From assembly GCA_000004985.1 (NCBI GenBank), contig GG738880.1: a stretch of 64,000 nucleotides of DNA. One strand, 5' to 3'. The notes under the pieces were generated by a model. The model did no database searches and was not told the origin of the DNA. It saw only the letters and a list, made by a program, of their open reading frames with translations. Below are positions 6,001 through 64,000 of this stretch, one piece after another. The stretch's first letter is position 1, and every line of letters starts with the position of its first letter. A program made the position numbers and the translations under genes. Source of the DNA: Naegleria gruberi. Lineage: Eukaryota.

Positions 6001-9000
6001 NNNNNNNNNNNNNNNNNNNNNNNNNNNNNNNNNNNNNNNNNNNNNNNNNNNNNNNNNNNNNNNNNNNNNNNNNNNNNNNNNNNNNNNNNNNNNNNNNNNN
6101 NNNNNNNNNNNNNNNNNNNNNNNNNNNNNNNNNNNNNNNNNNNNNNNNNNNNNNNNNNNNNNNNNNNNNNNNNNNNNNNNNNNNNNNNNNNNNNNNNNNN
6201 NNNNNNNNNNNNNNNNNNNNNNNNNNNNNNNNNNNNNNNNNNNNNNNNNNNNNNNNNNNNNNNNNNNNNNNNNNNNNNNNNNNNNNNNNNNNNNNNNNNN
6301 NNNNNNNNNNNNNNNNNNNNNNNNNNNNNNNNNNNNNNNNNNNNNNNNNNNNNNNNNNNNNNNNNNNNNNNNNNNNNNNNNNNNNNNNNNNNNNNNNNNN
6401 NNNNNNNNNNNNNNNNNNNNNNNNNNNNNNNNNNNNNNNNNNNNNNNNNNNNNNNNNNNNNNNNNNNNNNNNNNNNNNNNNNNNNNNNNNNNNNNNNNNN
6501 NNNNNNNNNNNNNNNNNNNNNNNNNNNNNNNNNNNNNNNNNNNNNNNNNNNNNNNNNNNNNNNNNNNNNNNNNNNNNNNNNNNNNNNNNNNNNNNNNNNN
6601 NNNNNNNNNNNNNNNNNNNNNNNNNNNNNNNNNNNNNNNNNNNNNNNNNNNNNNNNNNNNNNNNNNNNNNNNNNNNNNNNNNNNNNNNNNNNNNNNNNNN
6701 NNNNNNNNNNNNNNNNNNNNNNNNNNNNNNNNNNNNNNNNNNNNNNNNNNNNNNNNNNNNNNNNNNNNNNNNNNNNNNNNNNNNNNNNNNNNNNNNNNNN
6801 NNNNNNNNNNNNNNNNNNNNNNNNNNNNNNNNNNNNNNNNNNNNNNNNNNNNNNNNNNNNNNNNNNNNNNNNNNNNNNNNNNNNNNNNNNNNNNNNNNNN
6901 NNNNNNNNNNNNNNNNNNNNNNNNNNNNNNNNNNNNNNNNNNNNNNNNNNNNNNNNNNNNNNNNNNNNNNNNNNNNNNNNNNNNNNNNNNNNNNNNNNNN
7001 NNNNNNNNNNNNNNNNNNNNNNNNNNNNNNNNNNNNNNNNNNNNNNNNNNNNNNNNNNNNNNNNNNNNNNNNNNNNNNNNNNNNNNNNNNNNNNNNNNNN
7101 NNNNNNNNNNNNNNNNNNNNNNNNNNNNNNNNNNNNNNNNNNNNNNNNNNNNNNNNNNNNNNNNNNNNNNNNNNNNNNNNNNNNNNNNNNNNNNNNNNNN
7201 NNNNNNNNNNNNNNNNNNNNNNNNNNNNNNNNNNNNNNNNNNNNNNNNNNNNNNNNNNNNNNNNNNNNNNNNNNNNNNNNNNNNNNNNNNNNNNNNNNNN
7301 NNNNNNNNNNNNNNNNNNNNNNNNNNNNNNNNNNNNNNNNNNNNNNNNNNNNNNNNNNNNNNNNNNNNNNNNNNNNNNNNNNNNNNNNNNNNNNNNNNNN
7401 NNNNNNNNNNNNNNNNNNNNNNNNNNNNNNNNNNNNNNNNNNNNNNNNNNNNNNNNNNNNNNNNNNNNNNNNNNNNNNNNNNNNNNNNNNNNNNNNNNNN
7501 NNNNNNNNNNNNNNNNNNNNNNNNNNNNNNNNNNNNNNNNNNNNNNNNNNNNNNNNNNNNNNNNNNNNNNNNNNNNNNNNNNNNNNNNNNNNNNNNNNNN
7601 NNNNNNNNNNNNNNNNNNNNNNNNNNNNNNNNNNNNNNNNNNNNNNNNNNNNNNNNNNNNNNNNNNNNNNNNNNNNNNNNNNNNNNNNNNNNNNNNNNNN
7701 NNNNNNNNNNNNNNNNNNNNNNNNNNNNNNNNNNNNNNNNNNNNNNNNNNNNNNNNNNNNNNNNNNNNNNNNNNNNNNNNNNNNNNNNNNNNNNNNNNNN
7801 NNNNNNNNNNNNNNNNNNNNNNNNNNNNNNNNNNNNNNNNNNNNNNNNNNNNNNNNNNNNNNNNNNNNNNNNNNNNNNNNNNNNNNNNNNNNNNNNNNNN
7901 NNNNNNNNNNNNNNNNNNNNNNNNNNNNNNNNNNNNNNNNNNNNNNNNNNNNNNNNNNNNNNNNNNNNNNNNNNNNNNNNNNNNNNNNNNNNNNNNNNNN
8001 NNNNNNNNNNNNNNNNNNNNNNNNNNNNNNNNNNNNNNNNNNNNNNNNNNNNNNNNNNNNNNNNNNNNNNNNNNNNNNNNNNNNNNNNNNNNNNNNNNNN
8101 NNNNNNNNNNNNNNNNNNNNNNNNNNNNNNNNNNNNNNNNNNNNNNNNNNNNNNNNNNNNNNNNNNNNNNNNNNNNNNNNNNNNNNNNNNNNNNNNNNNN
8201 NNNNNNNNNNNNNNNNNNNNNNNNNNNNNNNNNNNNNNNNNNNNNNNNNNNNNNNNNNNNNNNNNNNNNNNNNNNNNNNNNNNNNNNNNNNNNNNNNNNN
8301 NNNNNNNNNNNNNNNNNNNNNNNNNNNNNNNNNNNNNNNNNNNNNNNNNNNNNNNNNNNNNNNNNNNNNNNNNNNNNNNNNNNNNNNNNNNNNNNNNNNN
8401 NNNNNNNNNNNNNNNNNNNNNNNNNNNNNNNNNNNNNNNNNNNNNNNNNNNNNNNNNNNNNNNNNNNNNNNNNNNNNNNNNNNNNNNNNNNNNNNNNNNN
8501 NNNNNNNNNNNNNNNNNNNNNNNNNNNNNNNNNNNNNNNNNNNNNNNNNNNNNNNNNNNNNNNNNNNNNNNNNNNNNNNNNNNNNNNNNNNNNNNNNNNN
8601 NNNNNNNNNNNNNNNNNNNNNNNNNNNNNNNNNNNNNNNNNNNNNNNNNNNNNNNNNNNNNNNNNNNNNNNNNNNNNNNNNNNNNNNNNNNNNNNNNNNN
8701 NNNNNNNNNNNNNNNNNNNNNNNNNNNNNNNNNNNNNNNNNNNNNNNNNNNNNNNNNNNNNNNNNNNNNNNNNNNNNNNNNNNNNNNNNNNNNNNNNNNN
8801 NNNNNNNNNNNNNNNNNNNNNNNNNNNNNNNNNNNNNNNNNNNNNNNNNNNNNNNNNNNNNNNNNNNNNNNNNNNNNNNNNNNNNNNNNNNNNNNNNNNN
8901 NNNNNNNNNNNNNNNNNNNNNNNNNNNNNNNNNNNNNNNNNNNNNNNNNNNNNNNNNNNNNNNNNNNNNNNNNNNNNNNNNNNNNNNNNNNNNNNNNNNN

Positions 9001-12000
9001 NNNNNNNNNNNNNNNNNNNNNNNNNNNNNNNNNNNNNNNNNNNNNNNNNNNNNNNNNNNNNNNNNNNNNNNNNNNNNNNNNNNNNNNNNNNNNNNNNNNN
9101 NNNNNNNNNNNNNNNNNNNNNNNNNNNNNNNNNNNNNNNNNNNNNNNNNNNNNNNNNNNNNNNNNNNNNNNNNNNNNNNNNNNNNNNNNNNNNNNNNNNN
9201 NNNNNNNNNNNNNNNNNNNNNNNNNNNNNNNNNNNNNNNNNNNNNNNNNNNNNNNNNNNNNNNNNNNNNNNNNNNNNNNNNNNNNNNNNNNNNNNNNNNN
9301 NNNNNNNNNNNNNNNNNNNNNNNNNNNNNNNNNNNNNNNNNNNNNNNNNNNNNNNNNNNNNNNNNNNNNNNNNNNNNNNNNNNNNNNNNNNNNNNNNNNN
9401 NNNNNNNNNNNNNNNNNNNNNNNNNNNNNNNNNNNNNNNNNNNNNNNNNNNNNNNNNNNNNNNNNNNNNNNNNNNNNNNNNNNNNNNNNNNNNNNNNNNN
9501 NNNNNNNNNNNNNNNNNNNNNNNNNNNNNNNNNNNNNNNNNNNNNNNNNNNNNNNNNNNNNNNNNNNNNNNNNNNNNNNNNNNNNNNNNNNNNNNNNNNN
9601 NNNNNNNNNNNNNNNNNNNNNNNNNNNNNNNNNNNNNNNNNNNNNNNNNNNNNNNNNNNNNNNNNNNNNNNNNNNNNNNNNNNNNNNNNNNNNNNNNNNN
9701 NNNNNNNNNNNNNNNNNNNNNNNNNNNNNNNNNNNNNNNNNNNNNNNNNNNNNNNNNNNNNNNNNNNNNNNNNNNNNNNNNNNNNNNNNNNNNNNNNNNN
9801 NNNNNNNNNNNNNNNNNNNNNNNNNNNNNNNNNNNNNNNNNNNNNNNNNNNNNNNNNNNNNNNNNNNNNNNNNNNNNNNNNNNNNNNNNNNNNNNNNNNN
9901 NNNNNNNNNNNNNNNNNNNNNNNNNNNNNNNNNNNNNNNNNNNNNNNNNNNNNNNNNNNNNNNNNNNNNNNNNNNNNNNNNNNNNNNNNNNNNNNNNNNN
10001 NNNNNNNNNNNNNNNNNNNNNNNNNNNNNNNNNNNNNNNNNNNNNNNNNNNNNNNNNNNNNNNNNNNNNNNNNNNNNNNNNNNNNNNNNNNNNNNNNNNN
10101 NNNNNNNNNNNNNNNNNNNNNNNNNNNNNNNNNNNNNNNNNNNNNNNNNNNNNNNNNNNNNNNNNNNNNNNNNNNNNNNNNNNNNNNNNNNNNNNNNNNN
10201 NNNNNNNNNNNNNNNNNNNNNNNNNNNNNNNNNNNNNNNNNNNNNNNNNNNNNNNNNNNNNNNNNNNNNNNNNNNNNNNNNNNNNNNNNNNNNNNNNNNN
10301 NNNNNNNNNNNNNNNNNNNNNNNNNNNNNNNNNNNNNNNNNNNNNNNNNNNNNNNNNNNNNNNNNNNNNNNNNNNNNNNNNNNNNNNNNNNNNNNNNNNN
10401 NNNNNNNNNNNNNNNNNNNNNNNNNNNNNNNNNNNNNNNNNNNNNNNNNNNNNNNNNNNNNNNNNNNNNNNNNNNNNNNNNNNNNNNNNNNNNNNNNNNN
10501 NNNNNNNNNNNNNNNNNNNNNNNNNNNNNNNNNNNNNNNNNNNNNNNNNNNNNNNNNNNNNNNNNNNNNNNNNNNNNNNNNNNNNNNNNNNNNNNNNNNN
10601 NNNNNNNNNNNNNNNNNNNNNNNNNNNNNNNNNNNNNNNNNNNNNNNNNNNNNNNNNNNNNNNNNNNNNNNNNNNNNNNNNNNNNNNNNNNNNNNNNNNN
10701 NNNNNNNNNNNNNNNNNNNNNNNNNNNNNNNNNNNNNNNNNNNNNNNNNNNNNNNNNNNNNNNNNNNNNNNNNNNNNNNNNNNNNNNNNNNNNNNNNNNN
10801 NNNNNNNNNNNNNNNNNNNNNNNNNNNNNNNNNNNNNNNNNNNNNNNNNNNNNNNNNNNNNNNNNNNNNNNNNNNNNNNNNNNNNNNNNNNNNNNNNNNN
10901 NNNNNNNNNNNNNNNNNNNNNNNNNNNNNNNNNNNNNNNNNNNNNNNNNNNNNNNNNNNNNNNNNNNNNNNNNNNNNNNNNNNNNNNNNNNNNNNNNNNN
11001 NNNNNNNNNNNNNNNNNNNNNNNNNNNNNNNNNNNNNNNNNNNNNNNNNNNNNNNNNNNNNNNNNNNNNNNNNNNNNNNNNNNNNNNNNNNNNNNNNNNN
11101 NNNNNNNNNNNNNNNNNNNNNNNNNNNNNNNNNNNNNNNNNNNNNNNNNNNNNNNNNNNNNNNNNNNNNNNNNNNNNNNNNNNNNNNNNNNNNNNNNNNN
11201 NNNNNNNNNNNNNNNNNNNNNNNNNNNNNNNNNNNNNNNNNNNNNNNNNNNNNNNNNNNNNNNNNNNNNNNNNNNNNNNNNNNNNNNNNNNNNNNNNNNN
11301 NNNNNNNNNNNNNNNNNNNNNNNNNNNNNNNNNNNNNNNNNNNNNNNNNNNNNNNNNNNNNNNNNNNNNNNNNNNNNNNNNNNNNNNNNNNNNNNNNNNN
11401 NNNNNNNNNNNNNNNNNNNNNNNNNNNNNNNNNNNNNNNNNNNNNNNNNNNNNNNNNNNNNNNNNNNNNNNNNNNNNNNNNNNNNNNNNNNNNNNNNNNN
11501 NNNNNNNNNNNNNNNNNNNNNNNNNNNNNNNNNNNNNNNNNNNNNNNNNNNNNNNNNNNNNNNNNNNNNNNNNNNNNNNNNNNNNNNNNNNNNNNNNNNN
11601 NNNNNNNNNNNNNNNNNNNNNNNNNNNNNNNNNNNNNNNNNNNNNNNNNNNNNNNNNNNNNNNNNNNNNNNNNNNNNNNNNNNNNNNNNNNNNNNNNNNN
11701 NNNNNNNNNNNNNNNNNNNNNNNNNNNNNNNNNNNNNNNNNNNNNNNNNNNNNNNNNNNNNNNNNNNNNNNNNNNNNNNNNNNNNNNNNNNNNNNNNNNN
11801 NNNNNNNNNNNNNNNNNNNNNNNNNNNNNNNNNNNNNNNNNNNNNNNNNNNNNNNNNNNNNNNNNNNNNNNNNNNNNNNNNNNNNNNNNNNNNNNNNNNN
11901 NNNNNNNNNNNNNNNNNNNNNNNNNNNNNNNNNNNNNNNNNNNNNNNNNNNNNNNNNNNNNNNNNNNNNNNNNNNNNNNNNNNNNNNNNNNNNNNNNNNN

Positions 12001-12353
12001 NNNNNNNNNNNNNNNNNNNNNNNNNNNNNNNNNNNNNNNNNNNNNNNNNNNNNNNNNNNNNNNNNNNNNNNNNNNNNNNNNNNNNNNNNNNNNNNNNNNN
12101 NNNNNNNNNNNNNNNNNNNNNNNNNNNNNNNNNNNNNNNNNNNNNNNNNNNNNNNNNNNNNNNNNNNNNNNNNNNNNNNNNNNNNNNNNNNNNNNNNNNN
12201 NNNNNNNNNNNNNNNNNNNNNNNNNNNNNNNNNNNNNNNNNNNNNNNNNNNNNNNNNNNNNNNNNNNNNNNNNNNNNNNNNNNNNNNNNNNNNNNNNNNN
12301 NNNNNNNNNNNNNNNNNNNNNNNNNNNNNNNNNNNNNNNNNNNNNNNNNNNNN
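1..12353. other. Assembly gap (run of N); sequence unknown
   Basis: Bases 1-12353 are all 'n'. The first real base is at 12354 and lies inside a coding exon, so the adjacent gene is truncated by the gap. Confidence 0.99.
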
Positions 12354-25556: not shown

Positions 25557-28500
25557 TTATTTTGAAAACAATTTGGCCTGTGAGAGTAGTTCTGTACTTA
25601 ATTGAATGATATTGTTGCACTTTAATCCACAAGTTTCAAAATTGATAATGTCAGACGTATCTTGCTTTAAAGAGTTAGCTAAAAGAACCCATCCGCTCAA
25701 TCTCTTATAAAACAAGTCTACAACAGATTCATCCAAGCGTAGTATTGGAGTTGGGGCTTCTTTTGCTTGCTCTCCATCTTTTGGCTTAATATTCGTAAGA
25801 ATGGAGGCTGAGGATACTGTTTCCTCAGATGCTAATCTTCTTTTTGTGAGCTGTCTTTCTAATTTGAAATTTCGTTTCAAAAGCTCAAATAGATATCTGT
25901 CTGCTTTTAAGGTTTCATTGATATTGGAGGGTTTCTCATTTCTCATAGAATTGTCTTCCAAGAAAACTACTTTCTTTTTAGAGCTTGTTGGATAGTTCAA
26001 ATAACAACCTGTTTTGATTATTTTTCTAGATAGGCTCATCACTACTTGAATGTTAAACGGTGTAAGGAGAATATTCAAACATTTCTCAAATTCACTTTCG
26101 AATAATGAGAGCAAATTTAAATTGTGTAATAAATTTTGCAAATCTAAATCCAATCTGAAAGGAGAGCAATAATCTTTACGAGTGGCATGCACAAAAGCAC
26201 ATGCCATATTATCAAACAAAACTCTTCCTTTTTCCATATCAAATATAATAGAATCATCCCTAACATTGCCCAATCCAATAAACCAACTAATAGCAGACCA
26301 TTTAGCAAGGTCTCTAACAACCCTTTCACACATGTCGTACCAGGAATTTTTGTAAATGTGATATTTCGTTATTAAGACAGTGTTTTTCTTCTTGGTTTCC
26401 ACATCATAGGACATGAGTGAATAGTGTTGGGATGCGTGCTGAGAAAAATATTGGAATAATACAGTTTCTGGCTTTTTGAGAGAAAAATTGAGTGATTTCA
26501 AAGACTGTAAATCCACAAATGAAGAGTTTGATTGTTTTCTAATTACTTTGAAATAATTTCCTCCCATCTTCATAATTGGTATCATTTCCAACTGTTCCAT
26601 CCCAATAAAATTCCCAATTGCATTCGAGGTTAACATTTCCAAATTTGAGGCATCCATGGTTGGAATGGGAGAAAGTGTAATGGCGAGACTTTCTTTTGAG
26701 GTTTCCTGATCAAAATCTCTATCAATTTGAATTCGCATCTCCCACAAATTATTGTTATTTTCATATGAAAATTTGGAAATTTCGATCGAGTTAACAAATT
26801 GCATCCATTTAAAACCAGTATCCTTTGCTGTTGATTTTCCAATATATTTAAACAGTTCCAATAATGAATTAAAGAATTCTTCTTTGTTAACTGAGGATTC
26901 CAAATTATTATGTAGCACATTATTGATCACTGATAAGGAAGCTTGAATCATTTTAAATTTGTGGTCATCACAATATTCCATAAATTTTCTGAACATTTCC
27001 AAGTTGCAAAATCTAAGAAAGTCCAAAACAAAGTTAATATTTTCCAGAGATGAATACTTTTGAATCGATTTGTAAGAGTTCTTAAAGAGAAATAATGATA
27101 CTAATCGGTTCAATTCTTCTCCATTGAATGTCTCAATAATGAAGGAGAAAATTTTAGCCCATCCCGTACAGAATGTAACACTTTCAAGCATGTCTTTGTC
27201 AATAAATCTGTATTCTATAAGATATGACAGTATATTGATGCAATGTTTTAGCTCTGTTACTGTCATTGAATTCTTACAATCTATTAATTTTGAAATATTC
27301 TCCAAAAAATCAAATATTAATAAATGTACACAATAGAAAACCGATGGCTTTTGTGTTTCTAAATCTGGTTGATAAGTAAATGATCCAAAATTGGAAGGGC
27401 ATAGGTTAGTGCATGTTTGGGAGAGAATTTCTTCCATTGTGAAATTTCTATTTGAATACTTATTGTTGGAAACTACAGATGAGAATAGGATGATTACAGA
27501 TTCTAGTGTTATAGTTCTTAAACAAAAGGAAATATTTTCAGGTAGTTCTATTTTAGAAGAGAGTAGCGCATAACCTATTCTCCAATCTAGCATTCCATTG
27601 TCTTGTGAAATCTTCCTAAGACCAAAGGTATCCTCATTTTTGATTGGATTATCTGTATTGGTAATGAATTCAACAAACTCTTTCCAATCTACCTTTTTTG
27701 ATTTTCGTATTGTAGTCTTTGATTGAAGTAAGAGCTGCTTTCTGACAAAATCGAATACTTTTGTGGAATCTCTTTCAAGAGAAGCATAGCAATCAGATAA
27801 CATTGAACAAAAAAGATTCAAAAACTCTCCACATGTTTTGAGTTCGATTTTGTTCAATCTGAATTTCAAAGATTCATCCTTAATTGACCATTCATGTAGA
27901 ATGAAATTTAAATTAATGGATATATCTTCAATATTACTAGTTTGTTCACAAATGATTTGAATTCTTTCATGAATAACAGCATCACTCGAAGTATCATTAA
28001 ATATATAGAAAATACATTTCCAAAATAGAGAATTTTTCTTTCCATGTATAAATTTAGAATCAAATTCTTCACTTATTACTATTTGTATAGGTTCCTCTGT
28101 TGTTTGTTTGTTTGTTTCTAGATTCATTTCTTCAACTGTTTCTACAAGTGGCTCTGTATTTCTATCAATAAAATCTTGGGCTAAGTCTAATAAACTATGG
28201 CGATTCAAATACCATTCAGAAGAATCCACAGTATGAATTGAAGAGTCAGATTGTGAAAGTTTCATAATATGAAGAAGGATAAGATGTGACTCAACAACAG
28301 GCTCCTTATATCTACTTGTAATTGATTCTACTGTTTTAACATAATCAATGATGGTATTTGTAGACAAATTCTCAATAGAACTAAAAATGTTTCTACTAGA
28401 ATTATTGGATTCGGGGTTCATTCCCTGCAATATATCAAAGAAGGGAGTCTTTTGATCTCTCCTACTCAGTTCGTATTGAATCCATTGTAAACAGGTGGAA

Positions 28501-31500
28501 GAGATCTTATCTTTGAGTACCAACTCTATTACTTTGATTTTTTCTGTTGTTAAAAGCTTGTTCTCAGTAAGCATCTTCTTGATAATATTCTCATAGGTGG
28601 TGGTGTTAATTTGTCGAGCAAAGTTGGCCAAATCTGATACAGTGTTCATTTCTTTCGAGTTGAGGAATGAAACATCTCCTTTCTTTAGAGTTTCCACTAG
28701 TTGGTAGTTGATTTTTTGTTCAGAATTCATTGAGTCAGAGTACGACTTGAGGAATAACTCGAAATTCTTCTTTTTCTCATCCTCTCTTATAGATCTATCC
28801 AATAGATTCTTTGCAAACAAGTAGGGAATAACATCAGGATACTCATTGGAAATTTTCTGAATGAAACTATCATTGGAATTAGTTAAAGATATGTATGATC
28901 CCAATATTTCACAAATATTTTCCTTATACAACCCTTTCAAATAATTCAAATAGGGCCAAAGATTATTAAAACCCATCTTGAACTCCTCAATCAATGAGGA
29001 ATATTCAATATTTGCATTGGATCTATTAAACTTGTTTAGAGTAACTCTTAATTTGAATAAATCAAACTCTGATAGCAGCTGTCTGGTCTCAATCGATTTG
29101 GCTTGCATTTTGATAATACTCAAATCTAGTTTCGATAAATATGATTCAAGATTATCGTTTAGGCCTATAAGAAAAGCAATTTTACATAGAGGATATAGCG
29201 TGTCAATTCTTGCAAATCTTGTAGAACCCATATTATTAGAAATTATCAGTGCTTGCTTTTTCATATTATTGGTGAGTAAATAAATTATTATCCATTGCCA
29301 ACAAGAAGTTTGAAACTTGGGATCAATTTCTTTAAGTGCTTGTTGTGCCTTTTCATAGAATTGAGTTTGATAGTATTGACTAGAGGGTGATCGTAAACTG
29401 AACTTCAATTCAAATATGATTGTCTTTGGTTTTTTCATGTAATCAGCACTTATACTGTGAATTGGATTCAGTGTTGAGAAGTAGCTCTCATTTGAAATGT
29501 AAGATATGTTTGCCTTAAGAAAGTGAATTGAAGATTTGTAGTTTTCCAAATTGAATATTTGGGCATGTTCAATCATGTTTGTTTTAAGCCAGTCTGGAAT
29601 ATTCTCAACAATTTTCTCAAGCTTTTCAAGCTCAGTTCTTGATTTTTCTATATCAAAATGATTGACATAGTATTTGGTTCCTAGTTTTAGTTTTTTGAGT
29701 TGAAATTCAATTGTGATTGGATTGAAATCTCTGTATACACTCGAAAAATTAGAGTCATCCAAAATATAGAATGTCTTTAACCGTAGATAGACGTATTCGT
29801 AATTCTTTGGGCTAGATCTTTGTAGATTTGATAATATTTGAAGAGCTTGCCTTGAAGATATGGTACTCTTCTTTTTGTAAAGAATTTTGGCTTGCAATAA
29901 CTGAAACTCTGGCGAAAGTTCACTAATATTTGAAACCTTAGGTATGTATTGTGATGCATTATTATAATCTTCAATGTTGTAATGATAAAGTGCTTTTTCA
30001 AAATCCACAGCAGATAAATTTCCACTTCCTTTATATCAAAAATTAATTAATTCGATAGATGAACTACACTTACTTGTTGCTTCGACCAAGCTTGTTTCAA
30101 TATATTTCCTAAGTTTTGAATTTGTTTTCAATGCACATTTCCCCATTCTATTGTAAGCATAAACTTGCATATAGTACGAAGAGTCATCCCTTTTAGTGAC
30201 CTCATCAAAAATCCACTTTGAATAGTCTAATAATTTCCAAGGACTTCCAGCACTTGCCAATGATATATAGTACCAGAAAAAAGTTGAGGAATCTTTACCT
30301 CCTGGCTTTTTGCCAATCATTACATGTCTGTCATAGAATAACTGCATCAAGATGAGTGATGTTTTGGCACATCCAAGTTTTGTTAAGTAGAACCACAATA
30401 GACGTAATGTTTGTGGATATTGAGAGCAAATGCTTTGGATTGTATAGTTATTGTAAATATCTTGAGTAAAGATAATTGGATCAATATTGAAAGAAGTTAA
30501 CAAGTATGAAAGAGCTCCCTCTATATCACCATTATAGTACTTCAATAGAGAAACATTATTACAAGCAGATTTTTCAATTTCAACAGATCTAAAACCAAGT
30601 GGTAATTGATTAAATCCAAACTGAAGTTTGGTACTATTTAGAAATCGTTCAAAAATAGTCGAGTTTGCATTGAATTGATTGGAATCGTCCTGAGATAAAA
30701 GCGAATCCAATAAGTTTTTCTTATATTCCAAACTTGCTAAACAATCACTCCCTGAAAATAATTCCAAAGCTTTTGTAATTACATTTTGTGCCAACTCATA
30801 ATTCCCTGTTTCCCAATAAATATCCACAATATTTTCAATTGATATTATTTGATATGGTGCTAATTCTAATCCCTTCATAAAAAATTCAATAGATTGCTTA
30901 TATAAACATCTATCTTTAAAAATAATTCCAAATAAATGATAAATTGATGGATTATTTGGATCTCTCTGTTTCATTTCATCCAAAATATGTATTGCCTCTG
31001 AATCCCAGCCCATATTATGTTTGATTAGTGCCAATGTTAATAAATAGGCAGTGTTATTTGGTTCACACTTTTTTGCTTTATAGCAACATTGAATGGCCTC
31101 TTCGTATTCCTCATGAATCATGTAAATTTCAGATAATGCTATCCAAGCATCAAAACTCGAATCTGTTTGTTTAATTATATTCAAGAAATATCCCTCAGCC
31201 CTATCTATATCATTTAATATCCTCAAATATCTTATTCCATTGTTTTTTATATTGAATTTCTCAATAAAAATACTTACAAATATCCTAAATTCAATAGTGG
31301 ATTAATTATTAAATGTTCATTTCTAATTTGTTGACTTTTTTGAAGGGAATATGTAAATGATTCGATGGATTTTTCAATTTCACCTCTATGTAATTGTAAG
31401 ACTCCAATATTATTAGTTACAAGAATATCCTCTTTTAGTAGTTCCTTTTTTCTCCCTATTAATTCTTTTGATTTTGCAAAACTGTCAAACGAAGATTGTA

Positions 31501-31671
31501 AATCTCCAATTTTATAATATAAATATCCTAATGTATTATATCCAACAATACTATTTTCGTTTGTTATTGATTTAGACACTTTAATATTTAAACAACAATA
31601 TCCGATAATTATTTACCTCGATCTATTAAATTATTTATTTCGGAAGTGTTATCCGAGAGGTGTGGAATCAT
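25557..31671 (-). CDS. Giant (~1995 aa) TPR/FAT-like protein ending in a degenerate PI3K/PIKK-type kinase domain (pseudokinase); possibly TRRAP-related
   Basis: Proposed exons: 31617..31671 (ATG; MIPHLSDNTSEINNLIDR), 31278..31578, 30074..31230 and 25557..30028. Introns: 31579..31616 (38 nt), 31231..31277 (47 nt) and 30029..30073 (45 nt), all phase-consistent. The N-terminal ~600 aa hold clear TPRs (AYLLTLALIKHNMGWDSEAIHILDEMKQRDPNNP...). The C-terminus has PIKK spacing: ...FKVIRKQSNSSFVDLQSLKS...WFIGLGNVRDDSIIFDMEKGRVLFDNMACAF...SPFRLD.... That matches GLGDRHxxNIMx6GxLFHIDFG with DRH->NVR and DFG->DNM, so the catalytic residues are lost. A FATC-like ...LFYKRLSGW lies near the end. Confidence 0.6.
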
Positions 31672-31708
31672 TTTTTTTGGTCGTATTTACAATTGTTTGT
31701 CTTACTTA

Positions 31709-33087
31709 TTAATATCCTGAAAGCTTTGAAGAGGACATCTTCTTTCCAGTTTTGCGTGGATCACCATTACGTTCAATTTCAGCACATTCATGAGTGATTG
31801 GATTATACTGAACAAATCTCTTATTAGGACTAGGTGTTGAAAGACCATTCTGTGAATAAAAAGATTGAGCAGTTGTTGTGTAAAAGTTTTGAGGATTTGA
31901 AGAGTAGAAGCTCTGAGATGATGGACTTCTGAATGGCTGTGGTTGATTGTTATATGATGAAGGACTCCTGTACATTTGAGGAGGAGGAGAGGTATATTGT
32001 GGAGATGCATACACATTTTGAGATGAAGGACTTCTGTACTGAACAGGTGATTGATTATTCGTAGTTCTATATTGCACTGCTTGATTATTTTGTGGACTCT
32101 TATTAGCGCTTTGGATTGGGTATTGGCTATAGTTTGTTTGAGGTGGATGTTGACTATAGTTGTTTTGTGGGCTCGAATAATTTTGAGGACTGGAATAATT
32201 ATTTTGTGGACTATATCCAGTTTGAGGGGAATAATCATTCTGAGTGTAACTTGGTGGTGATGGTTCTGGTTGATTTAGTGTTCTACTATCAATAGTACTC
32301 ATCATAATTGGAGTGATTGCAGTTAGGTCACTATCATTTCTCTTTAGTGGAGGTCTTTGAGATGGAACCTCATTAGAGGATGAAATAGTAGGATTTGGAA
32401 CCAATAAGGGAGCCCCACTAACAAAATACTGCTTAAATACAACAAAATTATTGCTTTGAGGAATATAGTCAGAGAGTCCGTAGTGTCTTCTAAGGAAACC
32501 AATAAGCTTTGGAGATGGTCTGTCGTAGGCAAATCTTTCAGGAGATGTTTTCTCAAAAGCTAGCATTGCTTCAAAGAGTATTTTACCAATACCTTTCCTT
32601 TGCACTGCTTCACTAACGTAAAAATCCAAAACACAAAGTGGTTCAATTTCCTTGAAATCTCCAGTCATACTCTGATAATAATTACTAAATAGTGTAGCGA
32701 CGCAATACTTACTCTATAGAATAGCTTTTTTCTTCCTACTTTTAAAATTCCAAATGCCTTATTATCTACACTATAAAGATAGAGATTATTATCATTAAAT
32801 TGAATTTTTGATGATGTTGTTATTGCTGTAGGAAGAACTTGGGCCTAAAAATCATCACATAATAATAAATATCAATTAGTGTTGCCAATAAAACTAACCT
32901 TTGCCGATGCATCACCCATTCTATCAATAACAGAGCAAATTACATTGTAATATTCCGCCTTTTTAGATTTAAGCAATGTAAGGGTTGTTTTGTTCCACAA
33001 TGAAATACAAGGATCATCTATATTGTTGTTGGGATTCAAAGTAAACGCCTTTGAGATACGTTGGATGTTGTGATGACCAAAATCCAT
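31709..33087 (-). CDS. Alpha-tubulin N-acetyltransferase (ATAT1 / MEC-17) with a long Y/S/P/Q-rich C-terminal tail
   Basis: Exons 32899..33087 (MDFGHH...[15 protein letters not shown]), 32713..32844 ([44 protein letters not shown]) and 31709..32671 ([83 protein letters not shown]...). Introns: 32845..32898 (GTTAGT..TTTTAG) and 32672..32712 (GTAAGT..TCAG), both phase 0. The catalytic core aligns near-identically with human ATAT1 ([22 protein letters not shown]...AIDRPSQKLLKFLNKHYNL...QVNNFVIFEGFF). Residues ~100–300 of exon 3 are degenerate YSPQNN/SPSSQ repeats. Confidence 0.9.
31830..32290 (-). repeat. Degenerate tandem Y/S/P/Q/N-rich coding repeats (prion-like low-complexity tail of ATAT1)
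   Basis: The translation reads [39 protein letters not shown]...[55 protein letters not shown]. The DNA shows recurring ggactat/ggagtat/tgaggact motifs. Confidence 0.7.
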
Positions 33088-33116
33088 CTTGATGCTTGTT
33101 TTTAATACAATATGAA

Positions 33117-33166
33117 GTTGCGCCTTTTTTTAGACGAGAAAGTACAATTTTCTGTTGGCGCGCTTT
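33117..33166. promoter_or_regulatory. GC-rich promoter motifs upstream of ATAT1 (GCGCCTTTTTTT at 33120..33131; palindromic TTGGCGCGCTTT at 33155..33166, E2F-like)
   Basis: These are rare GC cores in an AT-rich spacer 30–80 bp upstream of the ATAT1 ATG (33087, minus strand). The second is a palindromic E2F-type TTGGCGCGC. The first resembles the GGCGCCCTTTTTT element at 42362. Confidence 0.3.
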
Positions 33167-33603
33167 CAAGTACATTTACACCAATTAGGTTGTTGAGGGT
33201 GGACAAAGTTGCCATTAATGGATGCCTTATGTGTTCATATCACCACAAACTGAAGTGGAATTTAATTTTAAAATCACCTCAACACCTGAAACAATACTAG
33301 GTATTTTTTACTTCCTTATTAAGCAAAATAACATGCAGCAACCACAATGTTATTGTTTAAAAAACAGACTCTCTGGTGGTTAGATCCTAAATGGAATTAT
33401 TGGCCATATGTGAAAATAATTCAAATTGGAATTATAAATTCAACAGCAATATTTGAAACTTTAAGTTTCTTGCTCATATTGCAACCTGAAGTTTCCATTT
33501 GTTTCCACCTTCTTTGGCTTTATCAATATCTCCAAATGAATTAAAGCAATCAATATATTTGTTTTCATCACAAACGAAATACATTCTTAAATATAATTCA
33601 AAA

Positions 33604-33972
33604 TTATTTTTGTGGCCTACTGGTAGTATTTTCCTGATTGTTATTGTTTGAATTATCATCATTTGATACCTCTTCATCCTCCCATTGATTTAATAAATTT
33701 TGGGCGATGAGAGACACTGCTTCGGGATGCAAATATCTTGGATAATAAAAAAACATTTGATATGGCTCGTTTCTCTCCTTCTCCTTTCTAATGTTTTCTT
33801 CAATTTTTAAAGCTTTTTCGGATGATGACTCTTCCTCATTTGTAATATCATTATTATTGGTTTTATTCGATGTGGACGAATTGTTCTCCTCTGGTTCAAG
33901 CGAATAATCAGAGATATTGCTCCTAAAGTTGAGTTTGTTCATTTTTTCTCTCTTTGCCGGAGTCCTTTTCAA
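33604..33972 (-). CDS. Small N/S/E-rich protein, possibly DDA1-like (DET1/DDB1-associated 1); weak
   Basis: 122-aa ORF. MNKLNFRSNISDYS resembles the DDA1 N-terminal YNKSNFSRF. YYPRYLHPEAVSLIAQNLLNQWEDEE resembles the DDA1 YLPTREYPSEQIIV...LRYLHQQWDKK helix. The rest is low complexity. Confidence 0.3.
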   Translation of the reverse strand: MKRTPAKREKMNKLNFRSNISDYSLEPEENNSSTSNKTNNNDITNEEESSSEKALKIEENIRKEKERNEPYQMFFYYPRYLHPEAVSLIAQNLLNQWEDEEVSNDDNSNNNNQENTTSRPQK

Positions 33973-34242
33973 TTACAAACGTTTGATAGACTTGTTGTGA
34001 TACTGCTGTCATTCAAAGTATTCAATCAAGGTTCAAAGCCTGAAGGAGTGAGTAATTCAATAGCCAAATCAAAAACATCCTCCTTAATCCCATAATGAGA
34101 ACTCTTTTTGCTGACCGCACAATTTTATCTGCCTTTACCAGATCTATATTAATAAAAGCTAACCAATTTAGATTCTTCTCCATCCTTGCTCAATTCAGGT
34201 CCAAAAAAACATAACCATCTCTCATATCGAGAATAGAAAAAA

Positions 34243-35688
34243 ATGCAAGTCCCATCATCTTCGACTGCTGGTAATGGAGGTGGAAATAATCATCAACAAC
34301 AACCACTCAATAATGGTGTTAGTGAAACAACAATAGCAAACGCTAAACAACCTTATGTTCATCATTTTAGGATTGCAAAGAAGAAAACAACACTAGAATT
34401 CAAGATGGTTGATGCAAAGGATATCAGAAAGAATATGTATGGAGCACAAAACAGATTAAATCATCAACAACAAGAATTACTACTGAATTCTTTTACTGCT
34501 TCATCAGATATGAATGTATCACCTAATGATCAAATATCAACATCACAACAACAACATTTGACATTACCAGATAATTCTTCATCACCCCAAAACGCAACAA
34601 CATCACAACAACAACATTTTAATCACGACAAATCAAGAAAACCAAGAGCCCCGAGTCTATTTTCAACAAATAGTAAAATTACAAAGAAGCAACAAGCTAA
34701 TAGAAGAAACTCTACTATTATGATATCAGATCCAACTGGTTTTCTCCAACAAGTTTCTCCTACGAATAATAACTATCATCAAGATACAAACAGCTTTTCA
34801 CAATCATCTAGTGTTTTTGTTTCATCTAATAAGAATGTACATCCGGTAAATAACAACAGAAGAAAATCGACAACATCCCTATCAACAAATGAAACTTCTG
34901 CAATTTTCCCACCAACCACTACTAATACAACCACTACTAATCATCCGCAACATTCTCACTCACCTATTTATAATAATACCATCAACTCTCCTCCTTCAAC
35001 ACCTTCCCAACAACAAACGGCACCAACTTCATATTTTACTACAGGTTTTTCATTCGGCAATTCCCAAAAAGATGAATACACACCACCTATGGCTAATACT
35101 TTAACAAGTGGATTTTCTAACTTTAAAAATTCTAATGAAACAAACAGTTTTCAAGACAATTTATATGGAGATGCTTATGTAAGCACTTTAACACCTGAGC
35201 AGAGACGTTATTTAATGCAAGGAGCAAGAAGAACTTTTGCAACTCTTCCAAGTATTGAGGAAATGACTAGGTATGATGAAATGAGAAGAAATTCTATTGA
35301 GGAACTTACTCAAAACTTCTCACAAGTTTCAACATCGGAATCACCAAATAATAATAATAATAATAGCAATAACAATAATCAAAGAAGGCCAAGTACCGAT
35401 TCTCAAAATATGTTGGTTATTTCTGAAAATTTCAGAAATGATCAAAGATTCAGAAGGAGACAAACTTATGCATTTGATACAGAACATTTCTCTAGTTATG
35501 ATAACAGTTGCTTAGAATCATTTAACTTCCCTTGCAAACCTCCAACAAATTTTCAACCCCCTAATTCCACACCAAATAATCATCCTCAATCGAATGGCTC
35601 AGGCTCATCCTATCCCAATAATAATTCTTCTGCAGATAATAACCACCCTTACTACCTTCCTCCATTATCCAAATTAATACACGAATAA
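34243..35688 (+). CDS. Hypothetical N/Q/S/T-rich low-complexity protein (481 aa)
   Basis: Long ORF with consistent codon usage, poly-Q/N/T tracts and an (AAT)n run at 35347..35385 encoding NNNNNNSNNNN. The only non-repetitive block is ...LYGDAYVSTLTPEQRRYLMQGARRTFATLPSIEEMTRYDEMRRNSIEELTQNF. Confidence 0.45.
   Translation: MQVPSSSTAGNGGGNNHQQQPLNNGVSETTIANAKQPYVHHFRIAKKKTTLEFKMVDAKDIRKNMYGAQNRLNHQQQELLLNSFTASSDMNVSPNDQISTSQQQHLTLPDNSSSPQNATTSQQQHFNHDKSRKPRAPSLFSTNSKITKKQQANRRNSTIMISDPTGFLQQVSPTNNNYHQDTNSFSQSSSVFVSSNKNVHPVNNNRRKSTTSLSTNETSAIFPPTTTNTTTTNHPQHSHSPIYNNTINSPPSTPSQQQTAPTSYFTTGFSFGNSQKDEYTPPMANTLTSGFSNFKNSNETNSFQDNLYGDAYVSTLTPEQRRYLMQGARRTFATLPSIEEMTRYDEMRRNSIEELTQNFSQVSTSESPNNNNNNSNNNNQRRPSTDSQNMLVISENFRNDQRFRRRQTYAFDTEHFSSYDNSCLESFNFPCKPPTNFQPPNSTPNNHPQSNGSGSSYPNNNSSADNNHPYYLPPLSKLIHE
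35347..35385 (+). repeat. (AAT)n-type trinucleotide microsatellite within coding sequence (poly-Asn tract)
   Basis: aataataataataataatagcaataacaataat encodes NNNNNNSNNNN inside the 34243..35688 ORF. Confidence 0.8.
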
Positions 35689-35722
35689 TATTTCTTTTTG
35701 AAAATACTAAAATAATGTCAAT

Positions 35723-37354
35723 TTGTTTGAATTGAAAAAAATGAACACTTTGTGGAGACGATTGTCTATCCTGAATAAATCCTCTAAAATACTAAAATCA
35801 TCTTCATCATCAGCAACTTTAGTAAAATTAAATTCGGGAAGGAATAATTTTAGTACATCATCCAACAAAATTCTCTCAACACAACAAAATAATGATAATA
35901 ATTATACAGTTTTAAGTGTGGATACATCGGGACTTGTTCAAGAGACTTACGATAGTACAATAGTCAAAGAACATGAAACTCCAATGGTAAAACATTTAAA
36001 AAACAAAATTAAAGGAGCAGGACCAATTTCCGTATCAACATTTATTCAAGAAACATTATTGAATCCAATTTATGGTTATTATTACACTGCAAAGAAAACA
36101 TCATTGGACAATTCAAAACAAAATGTGATCGGAAGAGAGGGTGATTTCGTTACTTCACCAGAAATTTCTTCAGTATTCAGTGAAATGATTGGATTGTGGT
36201 GTGTAGATATGTGGACAAAATTAGGAAAGCCAAAGCAAATAGAACTTGTTGAATTAGGTCCTGGTAAAGGTACTTTAATGCACGATTTATTGGATAGTTT
36301 AGTTCAATCTAAAAATTCACCAACTATTGATGCTTTCAGACAATCTGTAAAGAAAGTTACAATGTGTGAAGCTTCAGAGGCTTTAAAGGAGGTACAAAAG
36401 GACAAACTCAAGTCATTTACAGAAACACACGAATTTAATTGGATTGACAGATTTGACAAGTATTCTGACTTTGATAGTAATATGCCTGTACTAATTATTG
36501 CTCATGAATTCTTTGATGCCTTACCTGTATATCATTTTGAGGTGAGTTTTAATTGAGAAGTTGAAAATTTAATTTTGGAATAGTACACTGAAAGAGGTTG
36601 GATGGAAGTATTGGTTGATATTGATGATGCAAAGGATTCACCACATCATTTCAAGTTTGTATTATCACCAGGACCAACAATGGCAACAGCATTTGTTAAC
36701 TTGGTTGAAGGAAAGAAGGATGTTGGTTCTATCAGAGAAGTTTGTGCAATGGGTATTGGATATGTTGAAAAAATTGGTGAAATTTTGAACAATAGAAAAG
36801 GTGGTTCATTAATTATTGACTACGGAAATGATTATCCTATGGGATTCACCCTTCAGGGTATTTATCAACACAGGTTTACTGAAACTCCTTTGGAAAAGCC
36901 AGGTGAAGTTGACTTGTCTACTTTTGTTGATTTTTCAAGTTTGAGGAAGGCAGTTGAAAAATTCAAAAATGTTAAGGTTTATGGACCTCAATACCAAGCA
37001 GACTTTTTACATCAAATGGGAATGGATGCAAGATTTGCCAAATTACTTCAAAATCCAAAACTTTCTCCTGAACAAGTTACATCAATGATAACAGCTTATG
37101 AAAGATTAACACACCCAACTGAAATGGGTCATCACTACAAGGCCATGGCTCTTGCCCATTTACCATCCAACAAGCTCACAGCCACAGGTTTCGATATTAA
37201 TCTCATTCCAAAGAGGGAAGCAACCCCAAACATGAAATCCCAAAGAGTTGCCCCAACACCAACCATTATTCATGGTAATAAGGAGGGTGAAACATCTAGA
37301 ATCAAACCATCTGATAAGAAAACTGTTCCAGCTGATGTTGGTATGTTCATATAA
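35723..37354 (+). CDS. Complex I assembly factor NDUFAF7 (MidA; DUF185 protein arginine methyltransferase)
   Basis: Exons 35723..36541 and 36584..37354, with intron 36542..36583 (42 nt, GTGAGT..ATAG, phase 0). The N-terminal S-rich presequence is followed by PISVSTFIQETLLNPIYGYYY...IGREGDFVTSPEISSVFSEMIGLWCVDMWTKLGKPKQIELVELGPGKGTLMHDLL...|YTERGWMEVLVDID...GSLIIDYGN.... This is collinear with NDUFAF7/MidA (DFITSPEISQxFGELLGxW...LVELGPGRGTL). Confidence 0.85.
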
Positions 37355-61707: not shown

Positions 61708-64000
61708 TTACTGTACATTTTGTAAAAATGAATTTTTTAACAGCTCATCATTACTCTTGGAAATTGTAGTCAAGACATCTGTAAAATACTTCTTGTAAAA
61801 ATCAAATACTTCTGGTTTTGCTTCTTTTAACTGATCCATTAAAGAAAGTAATTTTTCGAAATGTTTCTTTGACTGATTCAGCGTTATGAACAGCTTACTT
61901 TCCACATTTCTTAAATCATCAACTCTAGAACAAACACTCTCCCAATAATTGTCATCTTTTCCAATTAACAAACAGAATAAATGTAGAATACTTACTTTCG
62001 GATCTTGTTGCCTCCTGAAGACTATTCTTGAAAAACTCAACTACATCTGGTTGATTCAAATTTTTAGTGGCATTTGTCTGAATACCTAAATTAGACAAGC
62101 TCTTATCTTGATCCTCCGTGGCAACTGGGGTTGATACTTCTTTCTGTACAATTTGAACACTTGGAACACTTTTGATAACATCTCGTGTCTGTTCACAAAA
62201 ATCTCGTTGTGCTTCAATAATGGTTTCCTCCAAAGCCTCAGAGCAACCCTCAATTAACCCCTTAGACTCCTCAGCTAGAACTACAAATAAATCATCATGT
62301 TCCTTCAAAGTATCTTCTAGATATTCGTTCAACATTTCTATTAGATTTTCTCTGAAGGCTGTTACTCCAAGACTTAAATTATTTTTCATCTCTTCAGTTA
62401 TTGATTCAAACTTTGCAGCTGCCTGCCTATCGGTTTCTGGCTTTCTTTCCTGTATTTGGCGTATCATATCCTCGTTTGCTTTCTCTTCTTTCAGTTTTTT
62501 GATATATTCATCCTTTTCCTTGATTAACTTGACATGGTTTTGGATTTCTGCTGTTTTTTCATCTAAATCCTCTTTTATAATCTTGACATCTCTTAAGAAT
62601 AAAGTTTTTGTGCGCTCCAGCTCTTTAGCCTGCATCTTGATCGACGTTTCCATTAGCTTTAATCGTTCCTTTATATCCAGGCTATAGTCCTCTCCCTCAT
62701 ATTTTACCGGTATTGAATGTAACCAATCATGATAGTCCTCCAACTCCTTTTGTCTTCCTCTTTGATCTTTTTCAATTTCCTCAAGAGTCTCCAATTTTTT
62801 GTAAAATCTTGTGTGTACATTAACCTCATCTGAGTTTAATATGGAAACAGGCCCCATCCCTTTGTTATTAATGAAATCTCTTAATTGCTTATTTTCCTCT
62901 CTTAATTTTGAATTTTCCTCAGTTAAATTTGCAATTCTCTATTTGGATAAGAGGGCAATTATTGATCATACTTACCGAAGAGGCTTTTGAATTTTGTTCA
63001 ACTGTTTTTCTAAGCCTGTCGATTTCTTTTTCATACCTCTTGATTAAAATAGAGTCGTCAATCATTTCATTGACTTTGGCGTTGAGAACTACTCTTTTGG
63101 CTCTGTCTGCGAACTTTAAAGTAGAAAGTGATTCATCATAAGCCAATACTGATGATGAAACAGTAGCAACGAAAACTGTCTTGGTATTTCCTCCAAGTGA
63201 GTCCTGAAGTAGTCTTGTAAGTTTTGAATCTCTAAAAGGTATGTGACTTCTATTACTTTGCATCAATGCTGAGATACAATTACCAAGGGCAGATAAACTC
63301 AAATTGATAGAGTTCATTTCTTGAATTCTTCTATCTCCCATTTTGTTTGAATATATGGTGTTCCATTTTTCCTTATTAAATTTGTGAGATTTTTAATTCT
63401 TTGATTCCAAGTACTTACACTACCAGCCAAATCGACAAGATTTAACTTTGATACCTTGACGAATGCCTCTTCCTGGTTGCTTGGGTTTACAGGCTCTTGC
63501 TCGATAAACATTTGGAAAATTGTATGTGATCTACTTGATCTCTCGTTCATGTCAGTAGAAGAAATACTTCTGTTCTTTGCTCCCTTCTCCATTAAAGCGA
63601 AAATCTCCTCCTCCTTAGATACGCATACTGTAGTCAGATCTTGAACATAAACACCTCTTTTTCTGTCCTCTCTAACATCCAAATGACTAACCTTATCATT
63701 ATAATTTAACAGATCGAAAATTTTCTCATTATAAATCTCCAAATATGAACAATAAACTCTATACTTGATACTCTTTTTTGTTTTTTTAATGTGCTGAATA
63801 ATCTGCTCCACAGATCTAGGTATAATACCTCTTCTTTCATCGTGTAAAATGGTTGACTTGGATTGAATTATCTTTAAACCAAATATAAAATTGAAAACTT
63901 ACCATTGAATTTTCTCCATTAAAATTTTCTGAACTAAAGTCTATTCCCATCATTCTGTTATAAATTGTTATTCCTCATTCCGCCTCAGTCAATTAAAAAC
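61708..64000 (-). CDS. Kinesin (N-terminal motor domain plus coiled-coil tail); the 5' end lies beyond the window edge
   Basis: Exons in the window: 63903..63954 (phase-1 start; ...[18 protein letters not shown]), 63419..63856 ([19 protein letters not shown]...[19 protein letters not shown]...[14 protein letters not shown]...[10 protein letters not shown]), 62976..63371 (EKWNT...[12 protein letters not shown]...[23 protein letters not shown]...[11 protein letters not shown]...[22 protein letters not shown]...KASS), 61996..62938 and 61708..61955 (the last two encode the coiled-coil tail). Introns: 63857..63902, 63372..63418, 62939..62975 (37 nt) and 61956..61995 (40 nt), all GTAAGT and all phase-consistent. 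Switch I (SSRSH), switch II (DLAGS) and the neck are all present. Confidence 0.85.

Follow-up and report, generated by a model that had tools for sequence, protein, structure and literature searches.

A Naegleria gruberi alpha-tubulin acetyltransferase gene with a lineage-restricted tyrosine-rich insert in its predicted disordered tail

Results

A three-exon ATAT1 gene

We analysed a stretch of 64,000 nucleotides (the window) from contig GG738880.1 of the Naegleria gruberi assembly GCA_000004985.1. The window's opening 12353 bases are N. A gene for the alpha-tubulin acetyltransferase ATAT1 (also known as MEC-17 or aTAT) lies at 31709-33087 on the minus strand and has three exons. An earlier note, made from the letters of this DNA alone, had placed an ATAT1 ortholog at exactly this CDS span, and the peptides it quoted are in exon 3, within a minus-strand open reading frame (ORF) at 31709-32668. 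In our splice model, the CDS (33087-32899, 32844-32713, and 32671-31709) has 1284 nt and encodes 427 amino acids. The parts of the gene, from its 5' end, are:

32899..33087, minus strand: exon 1 (aa 1-63); in-frame splice model, match to the N. lovaniensis N-terminus, upstream in-frame stop
32845..32898, minus strand: intron 1, 54 nt, GTTAGT...TTTTTAG, phase 0; it follows ...ASAK, as it does in N. lovaniensis (locus L001)
32713..32844, minus strand: exon 2 (aa 64-107); contains Q65, equivalent to human Q58 and invariant in 71 homologs
32672..32712, minus strand: intron 2, 41 nt, GTAAGT...TATCAG, phase 0; it follows ...LFYR, again as in N. lovaniensis
32417..32671, minus strand: exon 3, part encoding the catalytic core (aa 108-192); invariant or near-invariant alignment columns, Pfam match
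32258..32416, minus strand: exon 3, linker (aa 193-245), P/S/T-rich and predicted to be disordered; composition, codon usage, pLDDT about 50, no differences in a second haplotype (L002, below)
31817..32257, minus strand: exon 3, low-complexity insert (aa 246-392); composition, repeat spacings, codon usage, pLDDT 44-57, haplotype comparison, absence from related lineages
31712..31816, minus strand: exon 3, conserved C-terminal module (aa 393-427), ...RKTGKK...SGY-COOH; BLASTP with the tail, profile-profile match, no differences in L002
31709..31711, minus strand: stop codon TAA, followed by a second TAA

The proposed start codon is the ATG at 33087. There is an in-frame stop 14 codons 5' of it, and the 11-residue N-terminus agrees with that of the N. 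lovaniensis protein (MDFGHYNIQRI). The two introns that the earlier note had proposed are borne out: both are GT..AG introns, and both are at homologous positions in the N. lovaniensis gene. Synteny between the two species is also kept, with a small acidic gene upstream of ATAT1 and a giant TPR protein downstream.

From the presence of ATAT1, the earlier note had concluded that the DNA came from a ciliated or flagellated organism, and this was right: N. gruberi is an amoeboflagellate, and four ORFs near ATAT1 are exact N. gruberi proteins (NAEGRDRAFT_69712, 50492, 69718, and 50490). It had also cited a downstream kinesin in support. A kinesin motor domain (PF00225) is indeed in the window, at 63317-63811 on the minus strand. 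But it is about 30 kb from ATAT1 rather than adjacent to it, and it adds nothing to the inference about the source, as kinesins do not discriminate ciliated lineages.

Neither the exact 427-residue product nor the product of the exon-3 ORF had a match in a collection of 15 billion proteins that holds the N. gruberi proteins of NCBI and UniProt. The close relatives returned by our homolog search were from N. lovaniensis and N. fowleri only. (The same search also missed the 318-residue ORF product of the ENA contig L002, so absence there is no proof that there is no existing N. gruberi model.) We found no close relatives in JGI metagenome contigs with a protein-derived scan or with a degenerate DNA pattern ending in [VI]FKQYF.

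The catalytic core

Homology searches confirm that the N-terminal ~192 residues are an ATAT1/MEC-17 domain with the full set of catalytic and acetyl-CoA-binding residues, as the earlier note had claimed. The Pfam family that it had named for confirmation, PF05301 (Acetyltransf_16, Mec-17), matches aa 40-190 with E = 1.3e-52 and 178.6 bits, far above the cut-off of 27 bits. The sequences of the zebrafish and human ATAT1 crystal structures match the core at E ~ 1e-37 to 1e-34, and over the aligned catalytic core, the orthologues from N. lovaniensis and N. fowleri are 76% and 73% identical.

The core residues encoded by exon 3 include C120, D123, Q131-R132-K133-G134-I135-G136, D157-R158-P159-S160, K162, and N182-F183. 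In an alignment of 71 sequences, C120, D157, S160, Q65 (human Q58), G134, G136, and D123 are invariant, and R132, R158, K162, N182, and F183 are nearly so. D157 and C120 are catalytic, while R132 and S160 bind acetyl-CoA (PMC11039541). The human and zebrafish enzymes (PDB 4GS4, 4PK2, and 4HKF) share with the N. gruberi protein a GNAT domain of about 190 residues, with C120, D157, the equivalent of Q58, R132, S160, and the QRxGxG motif at near-identical numbering.

For the fold, we relied on the N. lovaniensis orthologue, whose AlphaFold model served as a proxy for N. gruberi. The core of this model has pLDDT above 90, and ATAT1 structures account for all of its best PDB matches (E ~ 1e-18, target-normalised TM of 0.80-0.86). 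By this proxy, the N. gruberi core is predicted to have the ATAT1-type GNAT fold.

Evidence that the tail is coding

The core is followed by a tail of 235 residues. The earlier note had described a long tail of about 200 residues; a long tail is there, but it is longer than that. The tail is laid out as a P/S/T-rich linker, then a 147-residue insert of low complexity, and then an old, conserved C-terminal peptide module. We considered whether the low-complexity stretch might instead be an intron, or lie past an early end of the transcript, with a frame that is open only because of biased composition. Openness by itself is weak evidence: a second frame on the same strand, at 31702-32238, is open for 178 codons. 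Furthermore, the hexamer GTTAGT, which resembles a 5' splice site, occurs at the boundary between core and tail (32422), and an AG follows in frame 54 nt further on.

To score the frames, we trained a table of codon log-odds on 11 long ORFs from this window. The gene's frame scores best in all four segments of exon 3. Within the insert, it scores +0.18, as compared to -0.14 for the other open frame (and -0.14 or lower for the remaining frames), and we rejected the alternative frame on this basis. Only 8 of 20,000 mononucleotide shuffles of the insert were free of stop codons in frame. The spacings of direct repeats in the tail DNA are all multiples of 3 (11/11: 18, 21 (twice), 27, 30, 39, 66, 93, 294, 327, and 471 nt). 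And downstream of the insert, in the same frame, is the YNPIT...KTGKK module, which three Naegleria species share with diplonemid-like proteins. We also rejected the cryptic in-frame 54-nt intron: its GAG acceptor is poor, its coding score is high, and the same GTTAGT hexamer recurs within the conserved core, at aa 126.

An ENA metagenome assembly (ERZ929261) offers a second, N. gruberi-like haplotype (locus L002, 5061 nt, 98.96% identical); we found no mention in the literature of the ENA project behind it. Within the ATAT1 gene, L002 has one substitution in an intron (intron 1, its only difference in the gene outside the tail) and four coding differences, all of which are in the insert. Two of these are synonymous, one is N277T, and one is a 3-nt deletion that removes one proline of SPPPQ. 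The remaining 843 nt of the CDS have no differences (Fisher p = 0.014), although this comparison involves just one extra haplotype with 4 coding differences, which is too few for a test of selection. Across the alignment with L002, the indels within ORFs are all of 3 nt (4/4), while those in non-coding DNA are of 5, 2, 3, and 6 nt. The earlier note had reasoned that if the reading frame of the repeat region differed between haplotypes, then the region would be non-coding. The region does vary, but the frame is kept (three substitutions and one 3-nt deletion).

Given the codon usage, the repeat spacings in multiples of 3 nt, the in-frame variation between haplotypes, and the conserved module downstream, sequence analysis indicates that the entire 235-residue tail is coding, as the earlier note had supposed. 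We consider a non-coding repeat region to be very improbable.

A tyrosine-rich insert that is restricted to the N. gruberi lineage

The 147-residue insert is 20% serine, 16% proline, 16% glutamine, 13% asparagine, 12% tyrosine, and just 2% glycine (Q+N = 29%). It has 1 acidic and 7 basic residues, 21 aromatic residues (14%), and 12 SP dipeptides. Two kinds of degenerate units are visible: Y-S-(S)-P-Q-N-(N), with 6-7 residues, occurs five times, and [YF]-R-S-P-S-S occurs three times, with irregular spacing. Tandem Repeats Finder detects an 18-nt unit with just 2.1 copies. The aromatic residues are 6.5 +/- 3.6 residues apart. Spacing this even arose in 1.3% of shuffles (or 0.03% if FY pairs are merged).

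The tails of the N. lovaniensis and N. fowleri proteins (P0001 and P0002) have 108 and 103 residues, with almost no tyrosine and without the Y-rich repeats. In N. lovaniensis, nothing is hidden past the end of ATAT1, as the next gene begins only 113 nt away. Of the three Naegleria species that we compared, only the N. gruberi lineage has the insert. These relatives share the intron positions, the synteny, the C-terminal YNPIT...(R/K)TGK(K/R), and the aromatic C-terminus with N. gruberi.

To see how unusual the insert is, we ranked the composition of 165 ATAT1 homologs whose tails have at least 100 residues. The best 100-residue window from N. gruberi is 81% Y/S/P/Q/N, as compared to 65% for the next protein, and it has the highest tyrosine content (13%) and the lowest charge (4%). 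When 47 long ORF segments from the window are compared, the insert again has the most extreme composition. With the tail alone as the query, we found no homolog at E <= 0.01 among 5.8 billion proteins. Tails rich in Q, N, and Y also occur in ATAT1 proteins of other protists with AT-rich genomes; that of MEC-17 from the ciliate Tetrahymena thermophila (P0038), for example, has Y 8.2% and Q+N 31% over 219 residues. But ciliate-type tails are more charged (about 20% DEKR, versus 4% in the best 100-residue window from N. gruberi and 5% in the whole insert) and less rich in serine and proline, and they cannot be aligned with the N. gruberi insert.

Disordered tails are common in the ATAT1 family

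AlphaFold's prediction for the N. gruberi exon-3 product has pLDDT of 44-57 and no secondary structure across the whole tail. The N. lovaniensis tail has pLDDT of about 50. Among 120 ATAT1 homologs, the median length of the tail is 184 residues and the 90th percentile is 313 residues. In human ATAT1, aa 214-421 form a disordered regulatory tail, with functions in nuclear export (NES), nuclear localization (NLS), and binding to 14-3-3 and AP2 (PMC9565784, PMC11039541). A long disordered tail is the norm for the family, animals included. The earlier note had considered the N. gruberi tail not to be a feature of animal ATAT1. This is correct for its composition but not for the presence of a long disordered tail.

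The human and zebrafish proteins have a disordered C-terminal tail of about 200 residues as well, and theirs carries short regulatory motifs. The N. gruberi tail differs in being rich in Y/S/P/Q/N and almost uncharged. We could not recognise the mammalian NES or the PAQRRRT switch (NLS/14-3-3) in the N. gruberi tail, and the pattern R..[ST].P does not occur in it.

A conserved module at the C-terminus

The last 35 residues (aa 393-427) form a conserved module, YNPIT-x13-KTGKK, with an aromatic C-terminus. AP-2 mu is a candidate partner for it, as YNPI conforms to the Yxx-hydrophobic pattern. BLASTP with the tail only found YNPIT...(R/K)TGK(K/R) in N. fowleri (E = 1e-6) and in N. lovaniensis (E = 0.002). 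We also compared a profile of the three Naegleria C-termini to the C-termini of three diplonemid-like ATAT1 proteins, which have the pattern YNIIT-x13-17-[RK]TGKRLVRP; the profiles matched with a probability of 82% (E = 1e-5). Diplonema papillatum P0028 has the RTGKRLVRP half of the module.

A broader motif, SPTRSGxxY[ND]II[TS], is found in 13 ATAT1 proteins from outside Naegleria. With an HMM of this motif, the Naegleria tails score no higher than shuffled tails, so this comparison gives no support for homology of the Naegleria module to the broader motif. What supports a putative wider kinship of the module is the bipartite comparison with the three diplonemid-like sequences.

The earlier note had passed over both this module and the lineage-specific nature of the tyrosine-rich part.

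Is the insert a prion-like or FUS-like domain?

The earlier note had called the tail prion-like, had compared it to the tyrosine-rich low-complexity domains of FUS and of the C-terminal domain (CTD) of RNA polymerase II, and had suggested that it might mediate the formation of condensates or partitioning into the microtubule lattice. The comparison to tyrosine-rich domains holds up for composition and for the evenly spaced aromatics. Like the low-complexity domains of the FUS family, the Pol II CTD, and yeast prion domains, the insert has about 12% tyrosine, with a tyrosine every 6-7 residues; it is rich in S, Q, and N, has little charge, and has many SP dipeptides. By cosine similarity, its composition resembles that of the FUS low-complexity domain (0.84) and the consensus of the Pol II CTD (0.80). 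The insert has the uncharged polar composition and regular aromatics of such domains (12% Y, with spacing more even than in 98.7% of shuffles).

In contrast, the insert has no sequence homology to any of these domains. It does not have the profile of a prion-like domain, which would be Gly-rich or dominated by Q/N, Pro-poor, and of high propensity: instead, it has 2% Gly, 16% Pro, and 29% Q+N. A rough PAPA-like score averages -0.065, and the best 41-residue window scores 0.067, relative to a cut-off of about 0.05 (these values are indicative only). Given this borderline score and the proline and glycine contents, "prion-like" is a poor fit. Nor is the insert a CTD-like array of heptads with a fixed period, as it has just five Y-S-(S)-P-Q units and three [YF]RSPSS units, without a strict heptad.

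The insert might nevertheless be a functional domain of the sticker-and-spacer type, as in FUS or the CTD. It would then form condensates, or it would enrich the enzyme on or within microtubule structures as these assemble, when the flagellar apparatus is rapidly built de novo. The 21 aromatic residues, with a mean spacing of 6.5 that is more even than in shuffles, could be the stickers, and with only 8 charged residues in 147, the insert is almost uncharged. The similarity to FUS and the CTD in composition, the extreme composition among both the 165 ATAT1 tails and the 47 ORF segments of the window, and the maintenance of the frame in the second haplotype are all consistent with this idea. 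However, N. fowleri and N. lovaniensis also build flagella, and they lack the insert. Since the gene's only coding polymorphisms are in the insert, its sequence seems to be under relaxed constraint. Its 16% proline and 2% glycine are unlike FUS-type or yeast prion domains, its PAPA-like score is borderline, and tandem duplication alone would give evenly spaced aromatics. Also, we found no literature that links tubulin acetyltransferases to phase separation. Overall, a sticker-and-spacer domain seems unlikely.

Discussion

We propose that this gene encodes the alpha-tubulin K40 acetyltransferase of N. gruberi, and that the protein's predicted disordered tail comprises a linker, a lineage-restricted insert that may act as a spacer, and an old C-terminal module. 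We put the probability of this reading at roughly 85%.

The substrate fits the first part of this proposal. According to Velle et al. 2022 (PMC9036621), the flagellate alpha-tubulins of N. gruberi keep K40, which the mitotic ones lack, and the antibody 6-11B-1, which recognises acetylated K40, stains the microtubules of flagellates but not spindles (PMC9036621). The earlier note's claim had hinged on whether the organism's alpha-tubulin has K40, and in the flagellate forms it does. A 2024 preprint (bioRxiv 10.1101/2024.01.08.573270) reported that aTAT is confined to flagellated organisms and is present in Naegleria, where differentiation is the only time when it is upregulated. In this, it differs from the human and zebrafish enzymes: the N. 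gruberi gene is expressed only in the flagellate programme. According to the published data, then, aTAT is induced as amoebae differentiate into flagellates. Its target would then be K40 of the alpha-tubulins that are specific to flagellates, in the axonemes, the basal bodies, and the cytoplasmic array of the flagellate; the divergent mitotic tubulins, which lack K40, would not be substrates.

As for the insert, it may have arisen by in-frame duplication of the Y-S-(S)-P-Q-N-(N) and [YF]-R-S-P-S-S units, which would have degenerated since. It would now be a flexible, uncharged spacer that links the enzyme to the C-terminal module and is under weak constraint: its exact sequence could drift, and codons could be added or lost, provided that the reading frame was maintained. 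If the tail is coding, then we lean slightly towards this role as a flexible spacer.

A neutral spacer does not obviously account for the even spacing of the aromatics or for a composition that is extreme for the family. Both of these could simply mirror an origin by tandem duplication. With 21 aromatics and 12 SP sites, multivalent or phospho-regulated interactions are possible, but a functional sticker-and-spacer or phospho-regulated role for the insert strikes us as improbable. More speculatively, the evenly spaced Tyr/Ser-Pro insert could be a multivalent module (sticker-and-spacer, possibly phospho-regulated) that concentrates aTAT at the de novo flagellar apparatus, together with a previously undescribed and ancient C-terminal targeting peptide (in Discoba, YN[IP]IT-x13-17-[RK]TGK[RK]; in many other lineages, a basic stretch that terminates in R-[PLI]-[WFY]-COOH). 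We consider this combination to be a long shot.

That N. gruberi has an aTAT, its expression pattern, and its substrate were already known from the publications above. Because the ortholog, the K40 substrate, and the timing of expression are all published, finding the gene matters little in itself. The three-exon model, with introns that are supported by conservation, may help annotation, as the 427-residue product was missing from the collection of 15 billion proteins. Within the tail, as we read it, an insert that evolves quickly and is specific to the lineage is cleanly separable from a C-terminal module that is deeply conserved. Should this module prove to be a docking motif, then it would offer a way into how ATAT1 is targeted outside of animals.

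A bipartite C-terminal module

ATAT1 from all three Naegleria species (N. gruberi, N. lovaniensis and N. fowleri) has the same bipartite module at its C-terminus as diplonemid-like ATAT1s: YN[IP]I[TN]-x13-17-[RK]TGK[RK][LMI]. When we compared the Naegleria and diplonemid-like modules with hhalign, the probability was 82% (E = 1e-5). We know of no earlier description of this module. In N. gruberi, the module and two short linear patterns are found at:

31712–31816, minus strand (aa 393–427): C-terminal module of ATAT1, with the motif common to homologs P0028 (from Diplonema papillatum), P0033, P0143 and P0155
aa 246–249 of ATAT1: PPSY, one copy, which fits PPxY, the WW-domain ligand pattern (pattern match only)
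aa 388–391 of ATAT1: SPNK, one copy, which fits a full CDK-type S-P-x-K site (pattern match only)

Ligands of AP-2 mu carry a Yxx-hydrophobic pattern, which the YNPI or YNII of the module matches (a pattern match only), and mammalian aTAT1 does bind AP2 (PMC9565784, PMC11039541).

The SPNK directly precedes the conserved YNPIT motif. Many protist ATAT1 tails have another well conserved motif, RRxxSPTRSGxxY[ND]II[TS]L, at 20–55 amino acids from the C-terminus (P0015, P0020, P0027, P0031, P0048, P0060, P0077, P0090, P0093, P0094, P0130, P0176 and P0230). This widespread motif likewise includes an S-P-T-R, which as a pattern resembles the S-P-x-K before YNPIT in N. gruberi. An HMM of the protist motif gave the Naegleria tails scores that were not above those of shuffles, so kinship to the Naegleria YNPIT is unproven.

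Reading of the tail DNA

A contig that matches this region, the 5061-nt locus L002, is from an ENA 'metagenome' assembly (ERZ929261, run ERR1078381) and corresponds to 31418–36474 of the window. Because L002 is 98.96% identical to the N. gruberi region across its whole length, a second strain or haplotype exists. The density of differences between L002 and the window was 1.7% in non-coding DNA and 0.35% in the other ORFs. Within ATAT1, it was 0.9% in the low-complexity insert of the tail and 0 in the remainder.

We rejected a candidate 54-nt in-frame intron (GTTAGT...GAG; 32369–32422, minus strand), which has a poor acceptor and a high coding score. Its GTTAGT hexamer is also found within the conserved ATAT1 core, and we judged the candidate to be a chance match. 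Splicing this stretch out would delete 18 amino acids at the boundary between core and tail, where N. gruberi carries residues that its relatives lack. Several overlapping ORFs of 59–178 amino acids run across the low-complexity DNA in other frames (31702–32238, minus strand, and 32051–32295, plus strand). Their codon-usage scores are poor; they are by-products of biased composition.

Neighboring genes

33604–33972, minus strand: ORF for a small acidic gene upstream of ATAT1, at the same position in all three Naegleria species
25557–31579, minus strand: very large TPR-repeat protein directly downstream of ATAT1, with ORFs of 1483, 396 and 101 amino acids

The product of the small acidic gene has the conserved sequence ...EKERNEPYQMFFYYP[RK]YLHPEAV...LIAQNLLN.WE.EE and no Pfam family. 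In the N. fowleri entry in nr (P0002, 440 amino acids), this gene is fused to ATAT1, which looks like an annotation error. The three TPR ORFs are probably a single gene, and N. lovaniensis has a syntenic TPR protein of 2126 amino acids. Positions 1–12353 of the window are all N, either because of a gap in the assembly or because of masking.

Unusual homologs and C-terminal residues

One ATAT1 homolog from nr (P0119) is labelled as from Entrophospora candida, a glomeromycotan fungus; these fungi lack flagella. Either this sequence is contamination or it is an exception to the rule that ATAT1 is found only in flagellated organisms. Another homolog, P0128 (753 amino acids), has three tandem ATAT1 catalytic domains and an animal-like sequence. 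In a search of 1.84 billion representatives, it was the second-best match after the query itself (E = 5e-97, 3 matched stretches).

Among the C-termini of P0001–P0120, the last residue is W, F or Y in 21 of 58 non-redundant homologs (binomial probability 2e-11, versus 6.3% aromatic residues in the tails). These ends are mostly R-[PLI]-[WFY]-COOH; examples of aromatic ends are ...RRVGNRLW, ...SRPF, ...NRIYY and, in a flatworm (P0099), ...HTRLW. N. gruberi ATAT1 ends in ...SGY. As judged from these sequences, an aromatic C-terminus may be an ancient motif of the ATAT1 family.
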